Notes under the pieces: generated by a model | Databases searched by the model: none | What the model saw: the letters and a program-made list of their open reading frames with translations, nothing else | Told to the model about the DNA's origin: nothing | DNA from: Torpedo marmorata | Lineage: Eukaryota | Length of the DNA: 64,000 nt | Assembly (NCBI GenBank): GCA_977017645.1 | Contig: OZ360239.1 | Location: forward strand, 29,698,001-29,762,000 | Direction of reading: 5' to 3' | Made by a program: the position numbers and the translations under genes | Shown here: positions 19,823 through 54,653 of the stretch, piece after piece | How positions within the stretch are numbered: the first letter of the stretch is position 1 | How the letters are laid out: each line of letters opens with the position of its first letter

Positions 19823-20422
19823 CAGGTGCCTAACCTTTTATCCGAAAACCAAACATTTTTTCCAGTATATTTTCAGGTGTTTAGCTTAGTTTGAGCCAGT
19901 TAATGTTTGAAGTTTTACTGTATGTTTTACTTAAAAATAAAAAGTACGCTAGTAATTTTATGGTCTATCTTTATCTCACTTAATTTACCACCCCTCCCTC
20001 CATCCAGCGCCGCTGCGAACACCCCCATCCAGCTCCGCCGCGAACACCCCCATCCAGCGCCGCCACCCCCCCGTCCAGCGCCGCCACCGCCCCTGTCCAG
20101 CGCCGCAAACACCCCCGCGAACACCCCCATCCAGCGCCGCCGCAACCCAGGGCCGCCGCGAACACCTCCGTCCAGCGCCGCCACCGCAAACACCCCTGTC
20201 CAGCGCCGCGAACACCCCCGTCCAGTGCCGCCGCGAACACCCCACCATCCATCGCCGCCATCCAGAAACCCTTCTCGATGGAGTGTGACTTTGTTTTGCA
20301 CGAATCTGAAGCAACGCAATTATTTAAAAGTACCGCCGTTAAAATAATTCTATAATCCGAAAAAATCCGAATTCCAAAAAGTGTCCGGTCCCAAGGTTTT
20401 TGGATAAAAGGTTAAGTACCTG
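19823..20422. mobile_element. Tc1/pogo-type MITE carrying a GC-rich minisatellite
   Basis: TIRs CAGGTGCCTAACCTTTTATCCGAAAACC / GGTTTTTGGATAAAAGGTTAAGTACCTG, flanked by TA. Internal CCAGCGCCGCC..CGAACACCCC repeats at ~19995-20265. Confidence 0.8.
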
Positions 20423-32205: not shown

Positions 32206-32406
32206 AAGCAGAAATTCTTTAAAATGCAAGAGCAGAGAATTAACAGCAGAAAAAAACAGATAGAAACATCTTGAGTTTTATACTTTTGAACAAATCTAAA
32301 TGGAAAGGCAAAAAATAAATTATGTACAAGGATAATGACAGATCACAGTTTGGATAGTATGCAATGTACCCCACTGCAGACATGACAATAAAATTATTAT
32401 ATGCAG

Positions 32407-32838
32407 TGTAGCGACTACTATCCATAAAAAAGCCGCTCAGAGGCTAAGTGGGCTCTTTACTGTGACGCATTAGAACAAAATCATATCGAAGTCCAGATGC
32501 GTTTTAAAACTCTTTATTAGTGAACCCAAAAGGACTCATAACGTGGTAACGATCATGAACCTAGTAACGATAACGTCTAACGATAACGTTCCTGATAATA
32601 TCGTAACGTCCTTGCTAACGTGACTAACGTCCGTGTAACGGTCAACAGAAAATATCAGAGCCTGACTCACCCACTGTCTGTCCCGCCATACCAGTCAACG
32701 TGGGCTAACTGAAATCCAAACGCGCAAAACCCACGCGCGTGCGCACCCGGCAGCAACAGAACGCGCGCAGCCTCCGGACCGCCGCCGATGCCCGCAGCCA
32801 AACCATCAACCACAAACAATGCACTTTTGGCTCCTACA
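32407..32838 (-). repeat. 3' LTR of the BEL/Pao element
   Basis: Direct repeat of 39256-39699. AATAAA on the minus strand at ~32513-32518. Confidence 0.92.
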
Positions 32839-33301
32839 ATACCGGCCCCTAATTATTATGTCTCAAATAATAATTACACAATTATAAATAACAATCAAAC
32901 ACAGTAAATTCCAATATTATGCAGATCTTCATTCTTCATAAGGCCAGAGGTTACTAGCACGTCGCCTTGAAAAAGAGTGATCTTTACCACCACTCTGGAC
33001 CAGTAAAGTTTGTAGTCTGTGTAGTGGGCAAGGTCCAAAAAACAACAAAATAAAGTCAGTTTTGGGTGTATAATTTTGCTTTCTATAATAGTATAGTAGC
33101 AGGCTTTAAGTATTGTAGCAAGGCTTCTCTAATGCCCAGATATCATTTTTTTTGCCTTTCACCTACATTCTATACTATCATATTCACCCAGGTTTCCCCC
33201 CAAAGCAGCACATCTGTAAATAGTATCCACACACCACCTATGTGCATTATTACAGGTTCAATGAGGCTAACTCCTTGGGTCTGCAGTATAAGCACTGATT
33301 G

Positions 33302-33820
33302 TTAACTGATTATTTTGCTCACAGATTGTAAGGTGGGAAACTCGTCATCTCAAAATGCAAAGTCTTGTGGGTAACAAAGTCTTTCTGGGCCAGCACCTGA
33401 TGGCACATTGGACACACCTGGCAGTCGAGCTCCAAGTTAACAGAAGTTTGCCATGCATTTTTCTTGTTCTTTTTTGATTTATTTGACACTTGTTTCTCCT
33501 GCATTATCAAGTGTTTGTGAGCAGAGAGAAGCTCCTGCTGCTTGGCTGTATCCGGCAGCTAAACAAGCGGTTCATTGAATATTTTCAGGAAATTTTCTCC
33601 CAGAATTCCTCTGCAATTCTTGTCATACTCTGAGCAGAAATCAGACCCTGTCTGAACTGTCCAGATTGAGTCCGAAATTTGTTGAATTTTGCTTCATCAT
33701 TGTGCAAAAATGTATTTATGGATTGAATTAGCTCAAAATTCCTCTGCTGAAAGTTCTCTGGAATGAGGTAAATGCTGGATGATGGTAGAGACTGTTTTGG
33801 TGCTGGAATCATAGGCTCGC
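33302..33820 (-). pseudogene. ZNF598: ZNF598 processed fragment, C-terminal part, followed by presumptive 3'UTR
   Basis: YLIPENFQQRNFELIQSI..FRQGLISA, LPDTAKQQELLSAH, KSKKNKKNAWQ, CQVCPMCHQVL and FPTLQSVSKIIS* match the ZNF598 C-terminus as I recall it. Intronless, with frameshifts. Confidence 0.9.
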
Positions 33821-34030
33821 TGACTAAAATGTAGCGACTACTATCCATAAAAAAGCCGCTCAGAGGCTGTGGGCTCTTTCCTGTGACGTGTTAGAACAAA
33901 TCATAGCTAAGTCCAGATGCGTTTTAAACTGTTTATTAATGAACACAAAAGGACTAGTAACGTCCATACAGCGTGGTAACGTCTATCGTATGTGGTAACG
34001 GTCAACAGAAAATATCGGAGCCCTACTCAC
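33821..34030 (-). repeat. Internal partial LTR (putative R-U5) plus 9 nt of leader
   Basis: Homologous to the LTR 3' half (TGTAGCGACTACTATCC at 33830). It includes TGACTAAAA, otherwise seen only just inside the 5' LTR (39247-39255). Confidence 0.88.
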
Positions 34031-35102
34031 CCTCCTTGTCTCTATTCCGCCACACCTTGCCCCTTGCTGATATAGATGCTCGAACAGCTGCGGCAACCTC
34101 TCTATCTTCTTCCTCCCTGCTATATTTCCATCTGCCTTGACGGTTTTGTCCTCTATTCTGGCCTCTTCTATTAAATCGATCCACTTCTTCATAATCTTCT
34201 CCACCCAAAATACGTTTGTTTCTCCTTTGATGCCGAGGAGCATAATTGAACTGTAGGTCAATCTGTCTATTCTGCCGGGCCTCTGCTCTGCTTTTGCTGT
34301 GGGAGGCAGCTTTATGTGCTTTGTAATCAATCTCAGAGCGAAAAGCATGAGTAAACTGTTCAGTGTTACAATGCTCTTCCTCACACAGATAATGCTTCTC
34401 ATGGAAATGATCACGAAGATAGTCATAATCACTATAATATTCTTGAGCACCATCAGAATCGCAGAAATGGCAAAAATAATGATCCCGCCTCAAATGTTTA
34501 AGTACCGGTAATTCATCATTATCCAGATAATGGTCATCACAGAATTTGCACAAAGGATGGCCACGATGGGAAGTATCATCTGGGTCACCATGTATTCGAT
34601 GCCGTGCAAGGTCCTTCCGACTGTACCATTTTCGTTCATAGCTAAAATCTGGAGGTGTCTTACACACAGCTTACAGCTAAACATCTCATGTTGCTTCCTC
34701 ATGTGATGCTCCAGTTCTTCAAAAGTATTAAAGGGTCTTGACTCAAGACATACTGAGCAGTCATGCTGCAGGAGTTTCCTGAATTGGGTATGATTCCTTC
34801 CATCTGCAATATAAATGTCATATTTCTTTTAATGGTAGAATTGATGAGTTGCTATTGTTGAAAATGGAGCAATTTTTTTCACATACACAACCTTGTCGAG
34901 CTCCAAGTGGCAGATGGCGCAGTACCTCTGGCCGCACAGGGCCCTCATCTTGGTGGAGCAGCGGTAGCAGACCGGGTGATCGCACTTGCCCACGGCGTAA
35001 ATCTCCAGCTCCTGGCAGCACAGGACACAGCTCATCAGCCCCGGCCGGGGCTGCGTGACCTTTCGCTCCGTCCCTCGAAGCAGCCCGACATTTGGAAGCC
35101 AT
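34031..35102 (-). pseudogene. ZNF598: ZNF598 processed fragment, N-terminal part (RING + C2H2 fingers)
   Basis: SCVLCCQELEIYAVGKCDHPVCYRCSTKMRALC..YCAIC RING, ERKWYSRKDLARHRIHGDPDDTSHRGHPLCKFCD, HYFCHFCD and HAFRSEIDYKAH. No introns. Frameshifts at ~35030 and ~34650 and a stop at ~34829. Confidence 0.93.
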
Positions 35103-35159
35103 GCTGGACGCAGCTCTCTCCAGAGGCCCCTCTTCAACCGGCTCACCCTTCCCCTCCCT

Positions 35160-38100
35160 GGCCTTGACTTGTACAGACACTATTGAGAGTTTGCAGTTAT
35201 CTTCACCGGCCCCAGTAAGACCACTTGTCTGAACAGAGGCTACAGCACTGTTTTCAGCTGCTTCCTTTATTTCTGCTTGCTCCTTTTCCATTTCCTTCTT
35301 TCTTTGGTGGATATGCAACATTCTGGGATGCTTTAAACCGCATATGTTGCAGCTAAGTCGCTTCCTGCAGTTTTTGCTGATGTGTCCTTTACACAGACAG
35401 CCAAAACATACTCCATTTTCTTTTAGGAAAGCGATTTTCTCACTATGCGCCCTCTTTTCCAACTGTGGACACATCTCCAAAGCATGTCCACCTCCACAGA
35501 GCAAACAGCTCTTCACAGCAGGAAAACTCTCCTTTTCCTTAGTTCCTTTATCATTTTCCTTATCTGCAACTGTCACAGTGGTGGCAAAGGTACTTCCTTT
35601 TATTCTTGAATGAGGCTGTGACTTGGACCTCCTTACATCTTTGCTCAATGTTGGAGTGTCTTTGACATCTCCAAATACTGGATCTTTTGCAATCTGCACT
35701 TGCCATTCAAAGAAATCCACCATATCTTTAAAGGGAGCTCTCTGATTGTGTTTTGCCTGGAACTTACAGGCCACAGTTCTCCATATATCCCTCAGCCGGT
35801 AGGGCAACTTCCTTATGATGACTAGCATATTAGCAGGCATGTCAAGCTCATGCATGTAGTTGATATCTTCCATGGCATTTCAACATCCTCTTAGAAAGAG
35901 GGCGTGTGCCTGTAGAGCCTTTGTGTCATCCGGTTTTATTGACGACCATGAAAGAGCCTTCTCCATATAAGCTGTAGCAATTTTATGCTCGTTGCCAAAA
36001 TGCTCCTGTAGTAAAGACTTAGTCTTCCCGAATCCTCTGTCCGAGGCCATATGTTGGCAACTCCTTACAAGTTCCCTTGGCTGTCCTTTTGTGTACTGTT
36101 CCAGATAATAGAGACAATCTCTGGGGTTTTTGTTCTTGCTTTCAATACTGTGTTCAAAGGATTTAATGAACACTTGGTACTGAAGTGGGTCACCATCAAA
36201 AACTTGAATCTCTTTTTTGGGCATGGAAGAGAGACACTGTAGCTGGATTAATAATGCAGTGATTTCATTTAGCCTTTCCATGACTGAGAGTACGTTGCTC
36301 TGTTCACCGTTGCTTGTAGCAGGTAATGTAGCCGGAGATGTCACATGTGCATGTTCACCCGGATTTCTGATGCTTGACTGGAGTGTCAAGGGAGCTGTGG
36401 TGAGCTTGGAAAGATCGAGGGTGATTTACTTAGATGGAAAAGCCTGTCCATCATATTCGTGGGCAGGGTAAACTGTATCAAAATGGTGGTGATGCCAAAA
36501 CTCCAATATCTCTTTCAATCTTTAACTATACCTTTGCCACAAACCTTTTTTAAAACACTCAATGGATGTGTAAGACAGTTTATTTGTAATGGCAAAGTTT
36601 CTAGAATCTCCATGGAAAAGATGATGTGGGATTATAAACTGGGGGGGTTTACGATTACCGGATTTTAAGAAATACTATTATTTAGCAGACCAGTCAAGGT
36701 TTCTTCTAACTTTTTTTTTTTGAGGAGGTTGATACCCCTCCATGGGTCCAAATTGGACTGAACGCTACAGGGGAGAAAATAGCTAAAGATTTTGTTTACA
36801 AATGGAATACTGATAATATCCAAAAGAACGGATAATCCCATTCTGAAGCATATGGTTAAAATCTGGCAAGAACTTAATGACTGTATTGGAGAAAAAGTTG
36901 GAATATCTCCCAATACACCTGTTTCAAAACGAACTTATACCCATGAATCTGGGCAACAAAATATGGGAAAATTGGTACCAAAAGGGGATTCGTTATATTG
37001 AGGATTGCTATCACAATGAAAAACTCATGTCCTTCGAACAACTTAGAGATAAATATGATTTGTCTTATAGAACCTTTCACTGTTTTCTCCAATTAAGATC
37101 CTTTTTGTGAGAAAGGTGGGGGCCTACAATGACCCCACCTATTAGCAACGAGGTGCAGCAGATACTTCGACTGGGAAACTCACTCAAATTTACATCCAGA
37201 ATGTACTTTGTTTTACAAAGTGAAAGCCCTAAACCAGGTATAGATAGGTCGAGGGAGAGGTGGGAGTCAGATCTGGGTACAACAATTCACGAACGTTACT
37301 GGTCAGACTGGTGTAGGCATAGTGTGACGGCGGTTATTAATGCCAGATAAAAACTGATCCAGTATAATTTCTTTCACCAATTATATCTTACACCGCAAAA
37401 ACTACACAAATCTAAACCTGAAATATCGGAGATGTGTTTTGGATGTGGTGTAGAAACTGGAACTTTTCTGCACTCCACTTGGTCCTGTGTAAAGGTACGC
37501 CCCTTTTGGCATGACATATCTAATACACTAACCAGAATTACAGGGGTAAACTTTCCACTGCACCCGGAGTTGTATCTTTTAGGAAATTTAATGGACATAA
37601 GCTACAAATTATCTAAATTTCAAATTCAATTTGTAACGGTTGCTTTGTCCGTGGTAAAGAAATGTATAGCAATAACTTGGAAGTCCGACTCCCCCCTTCT
37701 AATCACTCGATGGTCAACAGAAATGCGCAGCTGTATTCCCATGGAGAAAATTACATATAGTATCAGGAATAAATACGATACATTTGTTAAGGTGTGGCAA
37801 CCATACCTGGAGTATATTGGGGTCCAGTTATAACTCAAACTTCAAGGTACAGCAAAATGTAATGTATAACAAATTAATGGTGCGACATCTCCAAAAAGAT
37901 GGGAAAAGCAATGTCAGCACTGACGGTACGTTTAATTTTCTTTTATTTTATTTGTAATTTCTGTTTTTTAGGTTTTGTTTTTTCCTCTTTAGTTGGGGGG
38001 AGGGAAGGGAAATTTTAAAATAATGTTGTATATAATTGGAAATGGTACAATTATGTTTAAATTGCTAATCTTTTTGTGAAAAATGAAAAAATAAAATATT

Positions 38101-38808
38101 CAAAAAAAAGGGAGCTGTGGTGAGAGATTGGATTTGAGCTACAGCTCTGTCTGCAGTTGTTATTATTGGTGTTTGTGGATTGGTAACACTGTGCTTTGGG
38201 AGGATTCGTCCACGTGCATGCATGTCTTGTAACTGTGGTACAAAAGGGTTTGCCTTAACATTAAGTGTTTTCTTTTCCTGTTGTCCTTTCTCAAAATATG
38301 AGTCCATACCATCAGACACTTCAGATAAGTTACTTCGAACACCAGATCCCTTTGAGGCTCCAAGAACCTTCACTTTGGCCATAGTAGCAGCAATGTTTGC
38401 TTCCAGCTCAAGCTGCTCTTCCAAGGCATATTTACCTTTAAGCAATTTTTGTCATACAACAAGAGCAGCCACTTCAGCCTCAGCCTTTATACGTGCAGAT
38501 GTAATACTGGAAACTCTGGAGCTTGATCCAGAAGAACTTAGATTGCTTCTCCTGCTTCCAACATTTGACACACTGTCACCTGGTTGTATTTCATCCTGCA
38601 TGTCAGATGTTGCCTTAATATTTAACTCTTTCTCCAGTTTGAATTGCACATCCTTTGCATTTTCATCCTCTTCACCACCATTTTGTGACACACCTTCAGC
38701 TATTTCCAAGTTGTTGACTTTAAATTCAGTCAATGTCTTCTGCAGTGGTTTTAATCGCGCCTCAGCGGCGACGCCAGTAGCAGCGGCAGCCATTTTACGC
38801 GTCTCCAT
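35160..38808 (-). pseudogene. BEL/Pao gag, interrupted by an L1 and two nonsense codons
   Basis: EIQPGDSVSNV, FDGDPLQY..F, LYYLEQYTKG, and knuckles CLLCGGGHALEMC / CFGCLCKGHISKNC / CNICGLKHPRMLH. Ends at LSIVSVQVKA, just before the expected protease. One reading frame once the L1 is removed. Confidence 0.9.
36405..38107 (+). mobile_element. 5'-truncated L1 inserted in BEL gag
   Basis: GRVNCIKMVVMPKLQYLFQ...CFGCGVETGTFLHSTWSC..IPMEKITY plus poly(A). 17-bp TSD AAGGGAGCTGTGGTGAG at 36388 and 38108. Confidence 0.92.
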
Positions 38809-39255
38809 CCAACCGTCCGCCAAGCTCGAGCACCAAGCACGCACAACACAAGCCCAAAATCAACAGTCTCCAATGGACAAGCGGCAGCTCAACCAAACTT
38901 CGTTCAAACCAAATAAATACAGAAGGAATCCACCAATGTAATCCTACCGCTTCTGATGGCTGTGACGTGCTGCTGTCAACGAGCGAGTTTCCACCACAGC
39001 AGAGTCAATGATATCGCTGTGATTCTCGGCAAATGACTCTGCCAGCGTGTACATAAGTCATTCTGCTCTAGGATCAGAAGCCCTGGACCCCTCTGTGACC
39101 GATGCTCAGACCGATGGAGGCGGATTGCTGTCAGCGGCCTGCACTCGGCATTTCCAACATGGCCGCCATATTGTTTTCAGTGTCGCTCCAAACCAAAGAG
39201 GGATGTTCCAACAATGTCCAATTCAATCCTGTTCAATATTTTCTGTTGACTAAAA

Positions 39256-39699
39256 TGTAGCGACTACTATCCATAAAAAAAAGCCACTCGGAGGCTAAGT
39301 GGGCACTTTACTGTGACACGTTAGAACAAATTCATATCGAAGTCCAGTTGCGTTTAAAACTGTTTATTGGTGAATCCAAAAGGACTCATAACGTGGTAAC
39401 GATCATGAACTGGGTAACGATAACGTCTAACGATAACGTTCCTGATAATATCGTAACGTCCTTGCTAATGGTCAACGGAAAATATCGGAACCCGACGCAC
39501 CCACCGTCTATCCCGCCATACCAGTCAACTCGGGCTAATTAAAATCCAACCGCGCGAAACCCACACGCATGCGCCAACCATCCGCTGTGAATAGCGCGTG
39601 CGCACCGGCAGCGACAGAACGCGCGCAGCCTCCGGACCCCGGAACACCGCCGATGCCCGCAGCCAAACCATCACAAACAATACACTTTTGGCTCCTACA
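39256..39699 (-). repeat. 5' LTR of the BEL/Pao element
   Basis: Direct repeat of 32407-32838 with several substitutions and indels. TG..CA ends. Confidence 0.92.
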
Positions 39700-39850
39700 T
39701 GCAGCATTGGTTCACCAGGATATTAACTTTAGGCGTGGATGATAAAATCTAAATATTGGAACAGAGAATGCCTGATCAATATAGATTCAGGAGTTACTGC
39801 ACATAGAAAATTAGAATACAGAACATTTTGCTTCAAAGAGTACTTGGGAT

Positions 39851-50743: not shown

Positions 50744-53700
50744 ATGGATGTAGAACATTTTTTGGAATCACCTGAACCTGATACTTTAAAAAAGGCGAAA
50801 AAGGAACAGTTAGTGGCTATAGCAAAAGAGTTGGGCATTGCTTCTGTAAAACCATCTATGAAAAAGGCAGAGATTGGGAGAAAAATAGTCAAATACTATA
50901 TAAAAGAAAAAAAAATTTGAGGAGAGCATGTTAGAGCAGTTTCCCAAGGGTAAACCTTCTGAAAACATACAATTGGAAATAAAGAAATTGGAATTGGAAC
51001 AAAAGAACAGGGAATTGGAGGCAGACAGGGAACAAAAGAACAGGGAATTGGAACAAAAGAACAGGGAATTGGAGGCAGACAGGGAACAAAAGAACAGGGA
51101 ATTGGAACAAAAGAAATTAGAAATGGAGATAGACAGAGAACAAAAGAGATATGAGAACGAGGAGAAAAATAGGAAATATGAGCTGGAAAAGATGAGGTTG
51201 GAAAATGAGAGGAGACAAGAAGAGCACCAAAATCAAATTCGTCATCCTGCTGAGGGGTTTTTGGCTAGTAGAGAAGTTAGGTTGGTTCCTCCATTTGAGG
51301 AGGCAGAAATAGATAAGTACTTCCAACATTTTGAGAAAGTGGCTGTGAAATTGAAATGGCCACAAGACCAATGGTCTCTTATGTTACAAAGTGTAATTAA
51401 AGGAAAAGCTCAGCAAGCTTATTCTACTCTTACCACAGAACAAGCTGCTGATTATGAAATGGTGAAGAAGGCTATACTCCAGGCTTATGAGTTAGTTCCA
51501 GAGGCTTATAGACAGAAGTTTAGAAATCTAAAAAGATCAGCAACCCAATCTTATACAGAGTTTGCCTATGAAAAAGTTGTGTGTTTTGACAGGTGGTGCA
51601 CATCTAAGGAAGTAAACAATGATTACAATCAATTGAGAGAATTGATAATAATCGAGGAGATAAAAAGGTGTGTTCCTGAGGATATTAAGGCCTACTTAGA
51701 TGAAAAGGAGGTGAAAACTTGGCAAAATTCAGCTAAGTTAGCAGATGAATATGCTTTAACCCACAAGCCTAAGTGGACGTCAGGTAGAATTTTCCAAAAG
51801 GTCACGGTGGATAATCAGAAGCAAGTGGAAAGTAAATTTGGAAGCGGTGTTAAGGAAAGGGATGAAGGAAAGTGGAAAAGGGAAAACAATTCAGGTCCCA
51901 TTTGCCACTACTGTAGAAAGGAAGGTCATATAATAGCAAGCTGTCCAGTGTTGAAAAAGAAGAGAGAAAAGGATGCAACACCTAATGCTTGTATTCAGAG
52001 TGAGAAGAGGCATAACACCCAGGAAGGAGATAAATTTACTGACCAAGTTAAAGATGTATTTAAACCTTTTGTGACTGATGGTTTTGTTTCAGTTAAGGTA
52101 GGATCAAAACAAGTGCCAGTGAAAATCTTGCGAGATACTGGAGCTGCTCAGTCACTTGTGTTAGATAGTGTCTTGGAATTTTGTGAAGCTACTGACACCG
52201 GTGACATAAATTTAATAAAAGGAATTGGTGGTGAAGTTGAGTCCATTCCTTTGCACAAAATAGTATTGAACTCAGACTTGGTGGAAGGACCAGTTATAAT
52301 AGGAGTGAGATCAGAGTTGCCAGTAGAAGGAGTCTCACTGTTGTTAGGCAATGACTTGGCCAAGGGTAAAGTAGTTCCTGCAGTGCGAATGACCACTAAG
52401 CCAGTCATTGATAAGTCAGAGAAAGACTCTGATATTTATCCGGCATGTGCCATAACCAGGGCCATGTCTAAGAAAAATGTCACTGTAGAGAAGGCAGTGG
52501 AAAATAACTTGGAAAAAGAAAAAGAAACTGATAATCAAGAAAACCTGGAAAAGGTTGAGCAATCTCCTATGTTACACCCATCCACTGATAAGACACCTAA
52601 AGGCACAGATTTGTCACTATCCCGACAGGAGTTAATAGCAAGGCAAAAGGACGATCCGGATCTTGCTGAGGTGAGGGATAAGGTTCTCTCTGAAGAGGAG
52701 ATTAAAAAGGTGCCAGTAGGGTATTATGAAAAAGATGGGGTGTTGATGAGAAAGTGGAGACCACGTGATGTTCCTGCCAATGAAGAATGGGCAGTAGTGC
52801 AGCAGGTTGTGATCCCTAAAGTATATTGGGATGAAATAATAACTTTGGCTCATAGTACACCCTTAGGTGGTCATCTTGGGGTGAAGAAAACTATAAGTAA
52901 GATAATGAAACAGTTTTATTGGCCCAGTTTAAGAAGGGAGGTTGTAAGCTTTTGCCGGGCCTGTCACACTTGTCAGGTGGTGGGTAAACCTAATCAGGGT
53001 CCCCCGGTGGCACCCTTGCAACCTATCCCTGCGTTTAGTGAGCCTTTCTCGAGAGTAATTGTGGACTGTGTTGGCCCATTGCCCAAAACCAAGGCGGGGA
53101 ATGAGTATTTGTTAACAATTATGTGTGCAGCCACCAGATTTCCAGAGGCCATTCCTCTGAGAAACATAAAAGCAAAGTCAATTGTAAAGGCTATGGTAAA
53201 GTTTTTCACCTTGGTAGGTTTGCCAAGGGAAATTCAATCAGATCAGGGCAGTAATTTCATGTCAGGCGTTTTCCAACAAGTGGTTGATGGACTAGGAGTT
53301 AAACAGATTGTATCCTCTGCGTACCATCCAGAAAGTCAAGGGGCCTTGGAGAGGTTCCATTCGACTTTGAAAACCATGATTAGAACCTATTGTTGTGAGA
53401 AGGAAAAGGATTGGGATGAGGGGGTTCATTTGTTGTTATTTGCAGCGAGGGAGTCTGTCCAAAATTCGCTTGGTTTTAGTCCATTTGAGTTAGTTTTCGG
53501 ACATGAGGTGAGAGGTCCTTTAAGATTATTAAAAGAACAGTGGATTAATCGTGATGTGCATTTAAATCTGTTAGATTATGTTTCCAAATTTAAGGATCGG
53601 TTACATAGGGCTTGTGAGATGGGAAAGGAGAATTTAAAGGCCACTCAACAGAAAATGAAGGTTTGGTATGATCGAAAGGCGAAGATAAGAACTTTTAAAC

Positions 53701-54653
53701 CTGGTGAGAACGTATTAGTTCTGTTTCCCATCCATTCAAATCATCTTAGGGCTAGATTTTCAGGACCCTATAGAGTTAAGTCAAAAATTAATGATGTCAC
53801 CTATGTCATAGAGACACCTAATCACAGACGAGACACACAGGTCTGTCATGTGAATATGATTAAGCCGTATTTTGAACAGGTGCCACACAAAGGGACTGAA
53901 AATTTACCTGAGGTACTGGTTATTGACAGGGGTAAGGAGGAGACAGATAGAACCAGTTTTAGAGAGGGTCATGGGACTGTTAATTCTCGGAGTTATGTTG
54001 TAGGACAGGGGAAGTTGGCGCCAGTAGAGGAAAAGGTTGTCGCTATTTCCGAGTTCCCTGTTCCAACTGGTAAGAAAACTCTGAGGAGGTTCCTGGGAAT
54101 GATTGGCTACTACCGCAAGTTCTGTAAAAACTTTGCTGATCTTGCGCTCCCTCTCACAAATTTGCTTAGAAAGAAAGAGAAATTTGTATGGTCTACAGGT
54201 TGTCAGGAAGCATTTGTCAAATTGAAAGCCATGTTATGCCACCAACCTGTGCTTAAGTCACCTAATTTAGAACAGTCGTTTTCTTTAGCCGTGGATGCGA
54301 GCGATGAAGCTGTGGGTGCGGTGCTGTTACAGAAGAAGAACGAAGAGGACATTGACCATCCGGTATCCTACTTCTCGAAGAAGTTCAATGATCATCAAAG
54401 GAATTATTCAACTATAGAGAAAGAGTTGTTGGCTCTTGTGTTGGCTCTACAACATTTTGATGTGTATATCTGTACAGCTCAAAAACCACTCATAGTGTAT
54501 ACTGACCATAATCCATTGGTTTTTCTTTGTAAAATGAAAAATAAGAATCGACGGTTGTTGAATTGGAGTCTAATTTTACAAGAATATAATTTGGTAATCA
54601 CTCATATAAAAGGGAGAGATAATGTAATTGCTGATTGTCTTTCTAGATGTTAA
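50744..54653 (+). CDS. Gag-Pol polyprotein (coiled coil, SCAN-like capsid, CCHC, protease, integrase, RT thumb, RNase H); frameshift in the A-run near 50915
   Basis: CHYCRKEGHIIASC, LRDTGA, H..GH..C..C, VDCVGP/SDQG/ERF integrase triad, GPY motif, RRFLGMIGYYRKF, AVDAS and ADCLSR. No YxDD motif. Confidence 0.88.

Follow-up and report, generated by a model that had tools for sequence, protein, structure and literature searches.

Priming is the first replication step of LTR elements, and the reference description of the Belpaoviridae by the ICTV requires a host tRNA for it, together with an 18-nt site complementary to tRNA-Arg or tRNA-Gly (PMC8742986). A different solution is known from Tf1, where the RNA's initial 11 bases anneal to the primer site and RNase H cleaves between bases 11 and 12, as described in the available text of three reports (PMC7175516, PMC4600332, PMC5341516). 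Self-priming has also been predicted for the plant elements Tcn1 (gypsy) and TAR, including Houba and Osr-1 (copia), and the available part of that survey gives as a rule that a complement of at least 10 nt to the LTR starts 0-5 nt past the 5' LTR (PMC6317226). The available sections of a paper on LTR structure bring up self-priming for chromoviruses and a hypothetical ancestor only (PMC3601003). For BEL/Pao elements, no report of self-priming was found in the literature searched, the scope of which excluded Repbase Reports, where a mention could exist, and searches for primer-site terms returned nothing from the available text of the Sinbad paper and of BEL/Pao, zebrafish and pufferfish surveys. 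This agrees with an earlier note on the DNA described here, whose author had not seen a fold-back primer described for Belpaoviridae. The mechanism considered in the following is a known one, in a superfamily in which no description of it was found.

The window, meaning the whole 64,000-nt stretch that was analysed (Torpedo marmorata, assembly GCA_977017645.1, contig OZ360239.1, positions 29,698,001 to 29,762,000), contains a degraded BEL/Pao copy with the following parts:

39699-32407, minus strand: the BEL/Pao copy, with a 5-bp target duplication on both sides
39700..39704, minus strand: left 5-bp target-site duplication, the same 5 bp as the right one at 32402-32406
39256..39699, minus strand: 5' LTR, 444 nt, TG...CA ends
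39471..39485, minus strand: LTR motif, candidate self-primer (LTR nt 215-229), conserved core 39471-39481, one mismatch to its own primer site
39483, minus strand: predicted transcription start, at the A of the YA step that lies 13 nt from the motif 3' end, deduced from YA positions
39363..39368, minus strand: AATAAA in the 5' LTR, downstream of the motif, role putative
39251..39255, minus strand: 5-nt spacer from the LTR end to the duplex
39236..39250, minus strand: primer-site position, complement of the LTR motif, conserved core 39240-39250, without TGG
35160..38859, minus strand: broken BEL/Pao gag with stops, DUF1759 in 35883-36425 (E 9e-10), boundaries approximate
36404..38109, plus strand: later insertion inside gag, missing from the sibling copy L122, without Pfam match
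34056..35160, minus strand: processed ZNF598 copy, 5' part, exons joined, at the place of pol, boundaries approximate
33821..34056, minus strand: internal LTR piece of another subfamily, with U3 end, motif (34001-34015), R-U5 with deletions, spacer and first primer-site bases
33070..33823, minus strand: processed ZNF598 copy, 3' part, PAH_ZNF598 (E 3e-10), lower boundary approximate
32842..32850, minus strand: polypurine tract; the same tract precedes the 3' LTR in relatives
32407..32838, minus strand: 3' LTR, exact motif at 32641-32655, identical to the 5' LTR in 376 of 470 aligned columns, 64 of the columns being gaps

The assignment to BEL/Pao made in the earlier note is correct. DUF1759, a BEL/Pao-type Gag domain, lies above its cut-off in the window, and the copy possesses the TG...CA LTRs, the polypurine tract and the 5-bp target duplication of this superfamily. 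The copy has no pol, and the domain set was read from an unbroken relative, L126 of family D, whose Pol contains Peptidase_A17 (6e-47), DUF5641 (3e-29), an integrase zinc finger and RVT_1. No chromodomain, the criterion for a Ty3/gypsy chromovirus, was found in the L126 Pol. The 18-nt tRNA-Arg/tRNA-Gly primer site that the ICTV gives as a descriptive trait is absent, and the element is classed with BEL/Pao by its proteins. Its nearest named protein relatives come from teleosts and one hemichordate, and the Gag family has about 24,000 first-look candidates in the 6.2-Gb genome. The family D polyprotein (L126:1724-7849) opens with a SAP domain (E 7e-9). An Rfam scan of the window element gave one match, at chance level, and the insertion at 36404..38109 presumably corresponds to a LINE 3' fragment, which it resembles. 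The two LTRs of the window copy, although they lie under one target duplication, are several indels and about 7% substitutions apart, whereas most pairs seen are closer (85-100%); they may originate from different templates. Elsewhere in the window, positions 39807-63993 and 19997-20260 hold nested and repeated elements, a G+C-rich tandem repeat and long frames, the longest with 1249 aa (50904-54653).

In place of pol the window copy carries ZNF598 exons that correspond to an intron-containing gene of the same genome (G000:C56, about 16.43-16.46 Mb). The second insertion L122 shows the same junction of gag and ZNF598 and then leads back into BEL pol sequence; the chimera was therefore propagated at least twice. 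LTR-mediated retroposition of host mRNA is a known process according to the available text on it (PMC5131818), and the window copy resembles its products in having a processed host gene between its LTRs. We regard this as a side feature of the copy that has no bearing on the priming question.

The 15-mer at 39236-39250 (minus strand) starts 5 nt past the CA end of the 5' LTR. The earlier note had reported that it is complementary to the LTR and that no TGG follows the 5' LTR, and at the window junction both observations are borne out. The reverse complement occurs exactly at 32641-32655 and 34001-34015 and with one mismatch at 39471-39485, this single mismatch sitting in the 5' LTR, i.e. the LTR copy that would supply the primer. 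With up to two mismatches allowed, the 15-mer has four matches against 0.38 expected, a number that none of 100 shuffles reached. Likewise, a perfect 15-nt complement to the 3' LTR is contained in the first 30 leader bases; in 147 further 30-nt windows of the internal region the complement does not exceed 9 nt. The element thus conforms to the rule of at least 10 nt at a distance of 0-5 nt, with one family D copy lying at 6 nt.

Five families of this genome were compared, namely A, to which the window copy belongs, B and C, with gag identities to A of about 80% and about 70%, respectively, and D and E, which were reached via long-frame copies. For each family, 30 LTR-plus-leader loci were taken as the best matches to one query copy, so that they represent related copies rather than a random sample. 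Homology was the only criterion by which the two sites were anchored, and 144 of the 150 loci passed (five C loci and one E locus were dropped). Positions 1-10 of the duplex are paired in 1400 of 1440 cells, and at least nine of these ten pairs are kept in 139 of the 144 copies. Towards the LTR side the pairing has a sharp edge, with 47/576 at positions -4 to -1, and at positions 16-21 it amounts to 186/864. The complement noticed in the window is therefore real, but its conserved length is 11 nt (10 in D), the 15 nt of the window copy not being general. Between families, two-sided changes are found at eight of the 11 positions (1, 3, 4, 6, 8, 9, 10 and 11), while positions 2, 5 and 7 are constant, and the matches persist while the flanks diverge past alignment. 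A leader pairs with 10.1-10.7 of 11 bases of its own LTR, as compared to 4.1-9.1 with the LTR of another family. Even within family B position 9 co-varies, with 15 A-T pairs, 11 G-C pairs and four discordant copies (Fisher p 9e-5, calculated on copies that are not independent). Co-variation across subfamilies had been suggested as a check, and indeed the complementarity is maintained via compensatory changes in the five families and in distant relatives. The complementarity is real, functionally constrained and lineage-wide.

A canonical tRNA primer site, for which relatives were to be inspected according to the same note, is lacking in the full-length relatives. A TGG within 8 nt of the duplex start occurs in one of the 144 copies, and no junction starts with TGG. 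When compared to 33 host tRNA genes of nine anticodon types, an incomplete set, the site showed a 3'-anchored complement of at most 2 nt and a longest internal complement of 5-9 nt. We rejected tRNA priming in the five families on the absent TGG and the co-variation, the direct comparison covering these 33 genes of nine anticodon types.

More distant relatives were retrieved from metagenome contigs, where an alignment of 27 polyproteins led to 79 loci with 37-57% identity to the query protein; none were found in the viral contigs searched. Eleven of the 79 loci were dropped (eight without a gag match, three without upstream sequence). A self-complement of at least 10 nt at an LTR-end-like junction is present in 39 of the 68 remaining loci and in 1 of 340 shuffles, under a rule that was fixed after inspection of some loci and with many loci near-identical (about nine split families). 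In 18 of the 39 positives the motif is contiguous, and in 21 a GT-AG intron of 73-426 nt within the LTR interrupts it. These 21 loci fall into about nine distinct families (L325; L326; L328; L329/L331/L333; L332/L344-L346/L349/L350; L338/L340; L352-L355; L356/L358; L360). L357 has the contiguous, intron-less form, yet it is a member of a split family, and in a midpoint-rooted RT tree it is the exception to an otherwise consistent grouping of the contiguous type with the genome's own families. The other 29 of the 68 loci are without such pairing, many of the contigs lacking the LTR. A loose CA-TGGT string lies upstream at 13 loci, and some metagenome relatives may use tRNA priming. In the window's own family a splice-junction primer was considered and rejected, the motif being contiguous and without an acceptor before it.

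A YA step lies 13 nt from the motif 3' end in families A (29/30), B (24/30) and E (29/29), but only in 4/25 copies of C, while family D has YA steps at 12 and 14 nt in 30/30. On the basis of these steps the predicted start in the window is 39483. As the AATAAA lies downstream of the LTR motif, the motif would lie 5' of the end of R. For the predicted start, which gives a short 5' end, the calculated duplex probabilities are 0.90 (A), 0.80 (B), 0.40 (C), 0.16 (D) and 0.71 (E), whereas a start 43 nt further upstream results in 0.19, 0.56, 0.21, 0.00 and 0.00; the short 5' end thus yields the higher value in all five families. Support for the duplex from folding is nevertheless weak in C and D, and in family D the duplex is part of the minimum-energy fold in 7/30 copies. 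Folding of the R-U5-leader of the window copy, another check that had been proposed, gave a structure no better than shuffles (z -0.27), and the duplex is missing from its centroid. Members of the Tf1 group reportedly have an additional U5-leader stem beside the duplex, to judge from the title of a paper. Four of the five families have a splice-donor-like GTRAG, 26-30 nt 5' of where the motif ends, with 27/30 copies of A, 25/25 of C, 30/30 of D and 28/29 of E showing it and 0/30 of B; if it were used as a donor, transcripts would start upstream of the motif. The window has GTRAG at 34030 and 32670, and the string is degenerate in its 5' LTR. For the relatives with an intron-split motif, a start as in Tf1 would require the first exon to be shorter than 10 nt.

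The internal LTR piece was also considered as a marker of the RNA start. The earlier note had placed the motif about 15 nt from the RNA 5' end, which is not established, since this piece has its start at about 34056, midway through a ZNF598 exon and 41 nt upstream of the 15-mer. Its other end, at a 3-nt microhomology, falls within the primer site. The piece is therefore no clean marker of transcription start and was rejected as such.

Integrated copies provide information on the distance between LTR and duplex. Spacers were determined with the help of target duplications, which was tried at 19 loci (four of them, L068, L075, L130 and L135, are unreliable, and L080 and L124 gave no resolved spacer). 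The integrated right end lies 5 nt before the duplex in the window copy and in three copies of B and C, and 4 nt before it in one copy of E. In family D the distance is 0 nt in four copies and 2 nt in three, with 1 and 6 nt also occurring. An LTR end that is flush with the duplex fits DNA synthesis beginning at the duplex edge, and in these four young copies it leaves no space for another primer site. The right ends of family D (L123-L137) vary between insertions and end in TA instead of CA, which suggests a flexible end processing by the integrase.

At the leader base that directly follows the duplex on its 3' side, families A, B, D and E each show 3-4 alleles. On trees built from downstream sequence, which may be poorly resolved, it changed 10, 10, 8 and 7 times, respectively, compared to 9.5, 9.3, 7.6 and 7.8 times after shuffling. 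Background columns that are as changeable amount to 5/550, 7/705, 1/996 and 4/972 in these families, i.e. about 1% or fewer. This hot spot was not seen in family C, where an A-run occupies the site. We take it to reflect errors at the end of plus-strand strong-stop DNA once the primer has been copied; template ends are said to be error-prone from work on Ty1. A corresponding hot spot at the motif 3' end, as expected from the minus-strand jump, was also looked for, and with insertions in 11/25 copies of C and weak or ambiguous signals elsewhere it was left unused.

A further type of product became apparent with a natural 29-nt junction from L021, which was used as a pattern and matched seven places. 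At six of these (L367-L371 and L373) the primer site runs on as inverted LTR for 58-236 nt, a proportion that is not a frequency, as the pattern was picked for finding such extensions. In L369 and L370 the inverted LTR reaches the LTR start and 5-bp target duplications flank the whole, so that they constitute palindromic mini-elements, and L367 shows more than one fold-back. The six loci are fossils of extended pairing, of the kind expected when a plus-strand end folds back onto its own motif, and their template switches lie in exactly the duplex register. They demonstrate pairing at the DNA stage only and not RNA priming. L021 and L144, with complements of 19-20 nt, were tried as longer primers and rejected; most such junctions are fold-back products, and the two loci therefore do not map the RNA start.

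We think that this BEL/Pao lineage primes reverse transcription with its own RNA in a Tf1-like manner, and we assign a probability of roughly 85% to this reading. The fold-back self-primer put forward in the earlier note thereby gains support from the missing tRNA-type site and from a compensated complementarity in five families and distant relatives. The pairing exists at a conserved position, has left DNA by-products and is oriented such that it would point a 3' end into U5. In the proposed course of events, a 10-11-nt LTR motif, located at or near the RNA 5' end with a start about 13 nt from its 3' end, would pair with the sequence 0-6 nt past the 5' LTR in the element RNA. By analogy with Tf1, the RNA would then be cut at the motif 3' end, probably by the element's RNase H, and the freed RNA piece would serve as primer for minus-strand DNA that runs across the spacer and U5. 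In plus-strand strong-stop synthesis the retained primer would itself be copied; this would maintain the match of the two sites and render the next base error-prone, and sometimes the plus-strand DNA end might fold back onto its own LTR. Being without pol, the window copy would have been copied in trans. Taken further, it is likely that a large BEL/Pao branch in vertebrates and other animals swapped tRNA priming for self-priming, as a third LTR superfamily to do so, that in one part of it the primer is formed only after splicing of an LTR intron, and that in the contiguous part seen here primer copying on the plus strand keeps the sites matched, with palindromic mini-elements as by-products.

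Co-variation alone proves pairing and not priming, and the fold-back copies record a DNA-stage event. The helix of LTR and leader could accordingly be structural, for packaging, dimerisation, suppression of the 5' poly(A) signal or as an aid for strand transfer at the DNA stage, while something else acts as primer, and the donor-like GTRAG with its hint at upstream-starting transcripts would be in line with this. Against this, the helix begins exactly at the required start of minus-strand DNA, flush with the integrated end in four copies, and it has the same length of 10-11 nt in five families and in relatives that share 37-57% identity with the query protein. Moreover, no other primer site is evident, neither as a TGG nor as a 3'-anchored complement of more than 2 nt to the 33 tRNA genes. 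We consider a purely structural helix unlikely.

A host tRNA half, a tRNA fragment or another small RNA could instead be the primer, in which case the LTR motif would pair with the site as a decoy or a switch. Priming by half-tRNAs is known from Ty1/copia lineages, according to the available text of the plant survey (PMC6317226), and the comparison covered 33 tRNA genes, an incomplete set. On the other hand, 8 of the 11 site positions vary from family to family, and the site also differs among dozens of relatives, always tracking its own LTR, so that each version would need a separate host RNA, and the longest complement to any of the 33 tRNA genes is the 5-9 nt given above. This makes a host small RNA very improbable. 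Least credible of all is an old fold-back accident that was passively inherited without function. Fold-back rearrangements do happen in this family, but passive inheritance cannot yield matched two-sided changes while the flanks diverge past alignment, nor matches that are split exactly by a GT-AG intron. Self-priming by the element RNA is the reading that we follow here.

If a widespread branch primes itself, the description of the Belpaoviridae is wrong for many animal elements, and self-priming would have arisen in all three retrotransposon superfamilies. Such elements would presumably be beyond silencing by tRNA fragments that target primer sites, and tRNA-based annotation would overlook their primer sites. 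The self-priming model predicts RNA ends to within a few bases and is therefore directly testable.

With the described Belpaoviridae the lineage shares the order of Gag, protease, RT, RNase H and integrase in one frame, the LTRs and the polypurine tract, whereas the tRNA site described for them is absent (PMC8742986). Tcn1 and TAR belong to other superfamilies and hosts, and the available text of the survey that covers them does not include BEL/Pao (PMC6317226). The RNA start and the cleavage have been demonstrated for Tf1, according to the available text, and are predicted here. Tf1 and its sushi relatives are Ty3/gypsy chromoviruses, in contrast to the elements described here, which have a Pao peptidase, DUF1759 and DUF5641 and no chromodomain. 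Also unlike Tf1, the spacer here comprises 0-6 nt and some relatives have a motif that is split by an LTR intron. What the lineage has in common with Tf1 and Tf2 of Schizosaccharomyces pombe and Tj1 of S. japonicus, as far as the available text on these describes them, is the lack of a tRNA site and a post-LTR site that is complementary to the element's own LTR, this site being 11 nt long in the Tf1 group.
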